DNA of 29,095 bases from the IMG/VR virus record IMGVR_UViG_2872158770_000007; one strand, given 5' to 3'. Below, piece after piece: positions 18,046 to 19,890 of the stretch; the first letter of the stretch is position 1, and each line of letters opens with the position of its first letter. The notes beneath the pieces were generated by a model. The model was given only the letters and a program-made list of their open reading frames with translations. It was not told the origin of the DNA and did not search any database. This DNA is from a virus. Taxonomy: Duplodnaviria > Heunggongvirae > Uroviricota > Caudoviricetes. Made by a program: the position numbers and the translations under genes.

Positions 18046-19890
18046 TTATTCTGCTTTACCAATAACGATATTTACGAAAGCTTCAGAGTGTGCAAGTGCG
18101 ATATCTGAGTAATCCCATACGCGATATACGATAGTGTTACTTGAACGATAGGATGTATCGTCATAATCTACTTCCTGCCCTTCCCAATTAGCGAGAATTA
18201 CATTGGAGAAATCGCCCATTAGAATAGTACCATCTGCTACGAATTCAGAAATCACTACACGTACTTCATCAGCAAGCCACATTTCAGTACTGCGATAACC
18301 TTCAACCATTGCTTTAGCAGCAGTGTTATCAAGTACTGCAATCTGACGTAGGGTACTTAGGGTTTTAGCGTTCATAACAGCTTTAACGCCACGCATATCA
18401 ACGTTAGCCTGTGCCAGCTTCGCTACTGCACCCTGAACATCTTCAAGAGTAATAGAACCAGCAGTTTCAACATTGAACACCGGAGCAGCGGCAACTACTT
18501 TATCCATTACATTTTGCTCAAGACCCTGAGCGGCATACCGTAGTAGTTCACTTTGTACAAATGATTCAATATTTGGAGCCGTTAGAATTGCTTGTTTGGA
18601 TAGTGGAATAGCACCACCAAAAGCTTTAGGGCTTAGGGTTACTTTAGTAAAGCTTGCAATAGAATCATCCTGTGCTTCTGCTTCACCATAGAATTTAAAT
18701 ACCGGAGATACACCAGCCGCTTTTGGAATACTTAGAGTACCGCGACCTGCAAGGCCAGAATAAACAGTGGTGTTTAGTTCACCAAGTGCAGAAATTTTTA
18801 GTAGTTCTGGAATGTATTGATCTTGTAGGTCATCAGCTACAACGCCAGCAGCGGTAGTAGTATTAGTACTTGGTACAGCCGCACGTACAAAACCATTAAT
18901 ACCACGTTCATATGCTTCAAGAGCAGATTTATCGCCAGTTTTAATGGCACGTACCATATCTTTTAATAGATTTTTATTATCCATTTCTTTGATTTCCTTA
19001 TCATGAAGAGGATTTTGTTTAATGTCATTCAATTGACGTTTGAAATCTGAAATTGAAATTCCTGTTTCAATTGCTTCAGATACATCAATATTAAGTACTT
19101 TACCGAGTGCTTCTAATTCACGAACACGTTCAGTATCTTCTGTACTATTTATACTTTCTGGTTCTTCACCATGTACTTTATTGAGCAAATCAGGTCGAGT
19201 AGAGATAATTTCTAAAAGTTCTTCATCACTTAATTCTTGTTTGATTTCTTCTGCATATTCGACCGATGGCTCTACTAATGCCTCTTCAATTGTTTCATTT
19301 ACTTCTTCAGTACTATCAACAATTGATTCCTTTTCGTTTTCTGGATTATCCATATCCATTTGACCCTCTTGAATTGTTTCACCTTCTTTATTTAGTGATT
19401 TCAATGCAAGTTGTGAGTCCATTGAACGACCTACCCCAACGGTAGGATCGGCAGGTACTGTTACTAATGAGATTTCATAAATTTCGTAGTTGGTAACATA
19501 GATATTATTACCATCAATTTGATAATCATTAATGTTATAGCCAATGCTAATATGGGTTAGTACGCCTTCCTGAATCATTTCCCATTCATCGTTGGCGGTA
19601 CTGCTAATTCGTAATGTAGCTCTACCAACGCGATCAGCATCCACTCGTGCATCAACTACAGCACCAATAAGATCATCACGGTTATGGTTAAAGAGTACTG
19701 CCCCATTGTTATTAAGGCGGGTTAGGTCTGCGTTACTGGAACCACATAGAAGAATTTCGTTATAGATTTGACCGTTGATTTCACGTTCTACAGGGGTTTC
19801 TGAACAAAACGCTACTTCGATGGTACGCGATTCTGTATTAATCGCCTGTAGGGGTTTCGTTAGTTCCCTCTTCTGGTTTTTCATTTCCAT
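18046..19890 (-). CDS. fused prohead protease / scaffold-like linker / HK97-fold major capsid protein
   Basis: 614 aa. N-terminal ~170 aa carries HK97-type prohead protease motifs ([27 protein letters not shown]). An acidic coiled-coil middle region follows. The C-terminal ~300 aa is major-capsid-like ([19 protein letters not shown]...). One uninterrupted ORF. Confidence 0.65.

Follow-up and report, generated by a model that had tools for sequence, protein, structure and literature searches.

A single open reading frame (ORF) of 614 amino acids (aa) on the minus strand of IMG/VR virus record IMGVR_UViG_2872158770_000007, a 29,095-nt stretch of tailed-phage DNA called the window here, is very likely a polyprotein gene for head assembly in a lambda-like prophage whose tail is of siphovirus type, and a member of an established family. 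It unites a prohead protease domain, a hypervariable linker, a candidate scaffolding module and an HK97-fold capsid body in one frame, and this fusion is genuine, not an error or artefact. The architecture as such is already known: it is covered by PHROG 617 and PHROG 4523, and some phage records say 'major capsid protein and protease'. What may be new is the sequence evidence for possible shorter products from two conserved internal starts.

In itself, the finding adds one member to a catalogued family and matters little. The automated label 'phage major capsid protein', which a 100% identical protein in an E. coli draft genome carries at NCBI, hides a protease domain and a putative scaffold in the same gene. 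The internal-start signals provide a modest, testable lead on the control of protease and scaffold dosage, and the arrangement is relevant to the engineering of self-processing HK97-type nanocompartments.

Domain organization of the fusion protein

An earlier note on this DNA had described one ORF with HK97-type protease motifs at the N-terminus, an acidic coiled-coil middle section and a major-capsid-like C-terminus. Its coordinates were exact; the minus strand and an overlap with the portal gene were absent from it. The gene is organized as follows (all on the minus strand).

18046..19890, minus: fusion ORF, 614 aa, ATG start, stop codon at 18046-18048; 67.4 kDa, isoelectric point 4.4
19423..19890, minus: Peptidase_S78 (HK97 gp4-type) prohead serine protease domain, residues 1-156, with a conserved motif at its end
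19684..19686, minus: codon of His69 (in LFNH), presumed catalytic; 90/90 fused homologues, invariant in VP882, R4C and DCP80
19546..19548, minus: codon of Ser115 (in ISIGY), presumed catalytic; 90/90 fused homologues, invariant in distant phages
19144..19422, minus: acidic, hypervariable, indel-rich linker, residues 157-249, delimited by charge profile and alignment gaps; predicted mostly disordered
18931..19143, minus: conserved short-helix module, residues 250-320; candidate scaffolding (delta-domain-like) element, judged from conservation and position
18817..18930, minus: flexible segment, residues 321-358, with the predicted cleavage site (~337-348) and the mature N-arm, from a model confidence below 50 and the R4C alignment
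18049..18816, minus: HK97-fold major capsid body, residues 359-614, from Pfam PF05065, phmmer and Foldseek
19838-19890, minus: portal/fusion ORF overlap, 53 nt, out of frame, where the portal gene (19838-21346) ends and the fusion ORF begins

Over its whole length, the protein aligns with PHROG 617 ('major head protein'; residues 3-607 against profile positions 6-620 of 626, E 9.5e-84); a second hit was phrog_4523 ('major head and protease protein'). Separate profile searches of the protease part and the capsid part, as the note had proposed, were both positive and bore out its assignment of the two ends. At the N-terminus, Pfam PF04586 (Peptidase_S78, 'Caudovirus prohead serine protease') matched residues 61-153 on profile positions 50-152 of 165 with 38.8 bits versus a cut-off of 21, phrog_80 ('head maturation protease') matched with E 2e-18, and the domain has a predicted assemblin-like prohead protease fold. 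We followed residue conservation in three alignments, covering 31 members of the clade, a set of 9 that takes in distant phages, and 90 representatives of clusters formed at 50% identity, which are otherwise ~25% identical, and set it beside an AlphaFold2 model. His69 and Ser115, by analogy the presumed catalytic residues, were invariant in all three sets (31/31, 9/9 and 90/90), and among the cluster representatives Gly76 was kept in 90/90, Glu139 in 88/90, Asp148 in 89/90 and Arg155 in 88-89/90. Judged by its sequence, the N-terminal domain would be an active protease.

The middle of the protein is acidic, as the note had stated (net charge of about -26 over residues 151-300), whereas its coiled-coil character was not borne out. 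In the AlphaFold2 model, residues 146-221 are disordered (predicted local distance difference test (pLDDT) score <30) and the helices that follow (222-236, 250-266, 271-276, 280-291 and 307-318) are short, none exceeding 17 residues. The module formed by residues 250-320 follows the pattern ER.RE(L/I)...G.....V..A...G(I)S...FKR... and then helix 307-318; its helices reach pLDDT values of 64-75, and eight columns are invariant in the clade (R255, E258, L259, G263, G277, S279, F283 and K284). The motif is kept across the 90 cluster representatives and is recognisable in R4C. A search of residues 157-346, linker included, against Pfam and PHROGs gave no meaningful match to a scaffold or any other family, and the model holds short helices in place of a long coiled coil. 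Since the module matches no known scaffold family, its assignment rests on position, conservation and analogy, by which it is most likely an internal scaffold or delta domain. We also considered that the module might correspond to a delta domain at the N-terminus of capsid relatives that are encoded on their own, as a profile of residues 245-340 matched many proteins of 340-445 aa. This was rejected: most of these turned out to be fusions truncated at contig edges, their frames still open there and protease motifs lying upstream.

At the C-terminus, Pfam PF05065 (Phage_capsid) matched residues 350-608 on profile positions 4-278 of 280 with 64.9 bits versus a cut-off of 24.2. The capsid part of the predicted model has pLDDT values of mostly 66-90, and a Foldseek search with this model retrieved the R4C capsid chain 8gta_A (E 6.5e-16, template modelling score on the target 0.69) as well as HK97 1ohg and 2ft1 (E ~3e-13). 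With phmmer, 8gta_A was the sole sequence match in the PDB (E 2.4e-9).

The overlap between the portal and fusion ORFs is kept at 44-68 nt in the examined enterobacterial relatives and in VP882, and amounts to only 4 nt in R4C; its conservation suggests translational coupling. Inside the fusion gene there are also antisense ORFs of 57-107 aa (19040-19363, 19266-19445 and 19592-19765, all plus strand), most of them facing the acidic linker. These are unlikely to be genes; the RefSeq record of VP882 annotates comparable antisense 'hypothetical proteins' (gp08, gp09).

Occurrence of the fusion gene in relatives

The fused state proved to be the rule. The best 120 homologues, 43-100% identical to the window protein, were 594-654 aa long apart from a few fragments, nearly all of them with both Pfam domains. 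The majority belonged to Enterobacteriaceae, among them Escherichia, Shigella, Kosakonia, Enterobacter, Citrobacter, Salmonella, Klebsiella and Buttiauxella; in enterobacterial prophages, the protein is a single fused ORF in hundreds of cases. In IMG/VR, 79 loci of 38-100% identity align from residue 1 to ~606 in one piece. The stop or frameshift between the domains that the earlier note had asked to be looked for in relatives was absent from 78 of them. The exception, L092 (2501-4312), has one in-frame nonsense codon at about residue 324, and its 99.78%-identical twin L059 is intact. Among cultured phages, whose hosts span several phyla, VP882, phiHAP-1, R4C, DCP80, FoX2, Mica, S-LBS1, ep3 and Mano each have one annotated coding sequence (CDS) of 602-684 aa at the corresponding place in the gene order.

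To look at the family from its capsid end, we searched residues 300-614 alone against 1.84 billion cluster representatives (50% identity) and obtained 796 hits. Among the best 150 of these clusters, 95 were of fusion size, and 89 of the 95 matched the protease-domain profile; the shorter matches that were inspected were mostly fusion genes ended by contig edges. As far as these sequences go, fusion is what this capsid lineage normally shows. The note had set the one-ORF arrangement against the separate genes of most lambda-like phages; for this lineage it is not unusual.

Three records deserve separate mention. In the metagenome contig L012 (550-2406, coverage 2.3x), a protease of 182 aa and a scaffold-capsid protein of 415 aa lie in the same frame, divided by a lone TAG right after VGVGRS, and an ATG follows 20 codons past the TAG, after a purine-rich stretch. 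The TAG could be a sequencing error, a pseudogene mutation, a site of stop-codon readthrough or the mark of a true split derivative; with the same frame, a single TAG and a 2.3x-coverage contig, we regard L012 as unreliable as a genuine split gene pair. Escherichia phage DCP80 (L005; PQ671644.1), a 141-kb record classed as Straboviridae/Gaprivervirus (T4-like), carries at its left end (1810-11726) a lambda-like terminase, a gpW-like gene, a portal gene and the fusion block, annotated mostly as 'hypothetical protein'. This lambda-like block looks foreign in DCP80, and the record may be a chimeric assembly. The 'major capsid protein' CDS of Roseobacter phage CRP-821 (L098; PV211011.1; 2925 nt, 975 aa) begins ~800 nt upstream of the protease domain; the annotated start may lie too far upstream, or the protein may include an additional fused domain.

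Candidate translation starts inside the frame

The earlier note had taken the gene to act through one polypeptide. The single uninterrupted ORF supports this picture, and conserved internal pairs of a Shine-Dalgarno (SD) sequence and an ATG suggest that it may be incomplete, with shorter products nested in the same frame. Two pairs stand out.

19357..19368, minus: candidate start 1; GAGGG (19364-19368), 4 nt, ATG of Met178 (19357-19359); anti-SD free energy (dG) of -6.3 kcal/mol, equal to that of the annotated start
18982..18999, minus: candidate start 2; AAGGA (18995-18999), 10 nt, ATG of Met303 (18982-18984); conserved in the clade

Among 29 clade representatives of less than 85% mutual identity, in-frame ATGs of the middle region had a median SD dG of -5.2 kcal/mol versus -1.0 kcal/mol for the other codons there (Mann-Whitney p 3e-16, indicative only, as the sequences are related). 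The difference comes from the two sites; in-frame ATGs elsewhere in these genes scored at background. The first candidate ATG sits 7-38 codons past the end of the protease domain in these representatives, and its SD is among the strongest 10% within the respective gene in 24 of the 29, though the amino acids of the hypervariable linker differ. The SD cores often use GAG, a codon that makes up 10.2% of Glu codons gene-wide. The predicted product would be a 47.7-kDa linker-scaffold-capsid protein without the protease. Such a signal is also seen far outside the clade: in six of ten distant cultured phages (CRP-821, ep3, phiHAP-1, VP882, R4C and DCP80), the ATG that comes next after the protease domain (+14 to +34 codons) ranks in the gene's top 6.5% by SD strength, with a different SD sequence in each.

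At the second site, Met303 is invariant in 31/31 clade sequences, AAGGA lies 7-10 nt upstream of it in 28/29 representatives, and Lys298 is encoded by AAG in 27/27, against 25.8% AAG gene-wide. The product predicted from this start would be a capsid protein of 33.4 kDa, extended slightly at its N-terminus. On the sequence evidence, then, the gene shows the hallmark of nested head genes, a conserved internal in-frame start with a putative ribosome-binding site of its own. Met157 was rejected as a further start; its SD score is strong in the window, yet it is not conserved.

We lean slightly towards shorter in-frame products being made from Met178 (48 kDa) and, in the enterobacterial clade, from Met303 (33 kDa), as the SD/ATG conservation suggests. 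For the fuller proposal of a three-tier nested gene, in which a protease-scaffold-capsid protein of 67 kDa, a scaffold-capsid protein of 48 kDa and a near-bare capsid protein of 33 kDa would be produced in set ratios, we see the chances as evenly balanced; under it, a single frame would provide every internal and shell protein of the head, and a start of the Met178 type would be of ancient origin and common to VP882, phiHAP-1, R4C, ep3 and others. If nested products were made, protease and scaffold would be sub-stoichiometric, and internal starts would explain how phages with a fused protease avoid placing one protease on every capsid subunit. Internal initiation would likewise explain how a stop at the junction, as in L012, could yield a workable two-gene form, so that fused and split arrangements would be interconvertible by a single stop-codon mutation.

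A proposed model of assembly and maturation

Roseophage R4C offers a structural view of what may become of such a protein. The product of its gene vBDshSR4C_006 (gp006) is 629 aa long and shares the protease motifs; the shell built from gp006 is of T=7 type with 11 pentons and 60 hexons, and the 268-aa chain 8gta_A corresponds exactly to residues 362-629 of the gene product. That the shell chain consists of the C-terminal part only fits a proteolytic removal of the first ~360 residues. R4C G362 aligns with about A347-G349 of the window protein. In HK97, the mature N-terminus presumably lies 8-9 residues before the corresponding A-G-S-L motif, and by analogy the cut would probably fall near residues 337-341, leaving a mature shell protein of ~29 kDa that would span residues ~341-614.

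We thus envisage self-scaffolding followed by proteolytic removal of the N-terminal part, which is consistent with the R4C structure. The capsid domains would assemble on the portal into a procapsid, probably of T=7, with their N-terminal parts pointing inward; covalent attachment would take the place of the separate targeting peptide that brings a free protease into the shell. Concentrated inside, the protease domains would then remove everything N-terminal to about residue 337-348, and the remaining capsid protein would expand upon DNA packaging. Our literature search found neither experimental processing data on fused genes nor reports of internal initiation in them, most subscription journals lying outside its coverage.

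Alternative explanations

That the fusion arose by artefact or decay, through a sequencing error, a lost stop or a frameshift joining separate protease and capsid genes, is extremely improbable and effectively refuted. The idea draws on the defective state of the window prophage, which carries insertion sequence (IS) elements in its terminase and tail-tip genes, and on L012, where a single TAG divides the protease and capsid parts. An identical protein, over all 614 residues, is however present in an E. coli assembly (GCA_050402125.1) with an intact-terminase prophage, and relatives of 38-100% identity as well as cultured phages of several bacterial phyla have one ORF with a conserved junction. 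Very improbable, too, is a catalytically dead N-terminal relic that serves as bulk scaffold, with maturation proceeding without proteolysis or by a host protease. The head module has no other recognisable protease gene, which would equally suit a protease-free pathway. Against it stand the strict retention of His69 and Ser115 in 90/90 sequences and of Glu139, Asp148 and Arg155 in 88-89/90 at ~25% identity, and a mature R4C shell chain without the N-terminal 361 residues.

A more serious competitor, which we consider the less probable course without calling it far-fetched, is a strict single product: only the 614-aa chain would be made, giving protease, scaffold and capsid at 1:1:1 and ~415 copies of each per T=7 shell, and the internal SD motifs would be chance strings in a Glu/Lys/Gly-rich linker, relics of an earlier two-gene state, or pause sites that aid folding of the emerging protease domain. 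The ORF is uninterrupted everywhere, gene callers and curators annotate one CDS, and four of the ten distant phages show no strong SD where the first ATG follows the protease part (in Mica, Mano and FoX2 the signal is weaker, in cyanophage S-LBS1 absent). Moreover, the distance of 7-38 codons between the protease domain and site 1 is about the length of the ribosome exit tunnel, as would suit a folding pause. Neither a pause nor chance, on the other hand, needs an ATG 4-10 nt from the SD, yet one is present in 24/29 and 28/29 representatives; rare synonymous codons preserve the SD cores even where the protein sequence varies; in-frame ATGs elsewhere in these genes score no better than usual; and a relic would have decayed between lineages only 23-31% identical. 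By our own estimate from HK97 prohead dimensions, internal protein of 415 × 38 kDa would fill more than half of the T=7 prohead interior, a possible but crowded arrangement. For the nested reading and the maturation model we advance, several further points count on the negative side. Site 2 is limited to one clade and was not found in the wider family (90 cluster representatives); SD-like strings are commoner in the linker because it is purine-rich; SD-like motifs could act in other ways; and counts of internal starts overstate independence because the sequences share ancestry. The middle module lacks a match to a known scaffold family in Pfam and PHROGs, the R4C chain in the PDB may show the modelled part and not the true mature N-terminus, with the R4C authors silent on processing, and the window copy itself may never build a virion because its terminase and tail-tip genes are IS-disrupted.

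Comparison with other phages

The cultured-phage members of PHROG 617/4523 are VP882 (Vibrio), phiHAP-1 (Halomonas), R4C (Dinoroseobacter), ep3 and ECO1230-10 (Escherichia), and further FoX/Murka (Xanthomonas), Mica (Burkholderia) and the Rhodobacter RcC cluster. The window gene shares with the PHROG 617 phages an S78 protease, a variable linker, a helical module of the form ER.R..I...G.S..F(R/K) and an HK97-fold capsid, as well as the gene order gpA-type large terminase, gpW-like, lambda-family portal, fusion. It differs in being only 23-31% identical to the cultured members, in the invariant Met303 with its own SD that the enterobacterial clade adds, and in residing in a defective prophage.

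In HK97, as summarised in PMC8508860, the capsid protein gp5 carries an N-terminal delta (assembly) domain that is cut off by the gp4 protease. Protease family (Pfam S78) and capsid fold are the same as here. The arrangement is not: HK97 uses two genes and a protease that is targeted non-covalently and present in sub-stoichiometric amounts, while in the window gene the protease is covalently joined to the capsid protein.

A protease, a scaffold and a major capsid protein in one gene have been described before (PMC8508860), and a fusion interpretation is also given in PMC9671004, PMC8601537 and the preprint 10.1101/2020.01.10.891226; fusion is on record for the Rhodobacter RcC phages, and the capsid-protease-scaffold fusion has been termed 'common in small-genome siphoviruses'. 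The actinophage fusions, compared here by description, embody the same concept of capsid, maturation protease and scaffold in one protein, in hosts of a different bacterial phylum. Actinophages with a capsid-protease fusion (cluster AU) also carry a duplicated major tail protein (preprint), a feature common to them and the window prophage. For gp5 of Pseudomonas phage MD8, a parallel fusion has been argued in detail (PMC8508860); unlike here, its protease part is lambda gpC-like and its capsid Mu-like, so that this fusion arose independently, from other families.

If the internal starts are used, the window gene would resemble another group of head genes in having long protease-bearing and short protease-free products with one frame and one C-terminus. 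Nested in-frame head genes of this kind are lambda C/Nu3, Mu I/Z, P2 gpO and herpesvirus UL26/UL26.5, in which the sharing between long and short products sets the protease-to-scaffold ratio. There, the capsid protein is encoded by a separate gene; here, given the candidate starts, it would lie inside the nest.

The surrounding prophage

The fusion gene belongs to a lambda-like morphogenesis module, all of it on the minus strand and interrupted by two IS elements:

25037-25582, minus: Nu1-like small terminase
24679-25122 (N-part) and 21888-23348 (C-part), minus: gpA-type large terminase, IS-split
21346-21876, minus: gpW-like head-tail joining protein
19838-21346, minus: lambda-family portal
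17709-18032, minus: weak gpFII-like match, below the Pfam cut-off
14646-17297, minus: 883-aa protein; tail-tube domain at the N-terminus, fibre-like towards the C-terminus
14114-14587, minus: ordinary tail-tube protein, 157 aa
13368-14074, minus: two small ORFs
thereafter, minus: tape measure protein, then gpJ-like tip protein
23390-24719: IS2-like element, 1330 bp, with overlapping transposase ORFs 23435-23845 and 23803-24708 (plus); G+C content ~0.49, 5-bp target duplication; splits the large terminase
7391-8639: IS3-family element, ~1250 bp, with ORFs 7399-8238 and 8265-8603 (minus); phrog_157 match with E 1.5e-124, 3-bp duplication relative to L006

In the morphogenesis module, no gene for a protease, scaffold or decoration protein could be recognised with Pfam and PHROGs beside the fusion. 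The IS3-family insertion interrupts the gene of the gpJ-like central tail fibre (tip). Because of the two IS insertions, the prophage is defective; the fusion ORF itself is undamaged. The E. coli prophage L006, with ~99% identical DNA, has an intact 632-aa terminase, and a megablast search against complete E. coli genomes, phages and plasmids returned no near-identical DNA.

In the 883-aa protein, the N-terminal 150 aa are a tail-tube domain (phrog_158) and the remainder is fibre-like, with tandem repeats of ~25 aa (75-nt DNA repeats, 16197-16553) and a C-terminal Peptidase_S74 intramolecular chaperone. Its gene lies directly upstream of that of the 157-aa tail-tube protein, and the pair is conserved in relatives (875-1089 aa). 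Upstream of the terminase genes, a segment of ~1.5 kb (26287-27761) has no counterpart in L006, and the flank beyond it (27762-29095) is only 93.7% identical; the segment looks like a mosaic replacement in an early or regulatory region.

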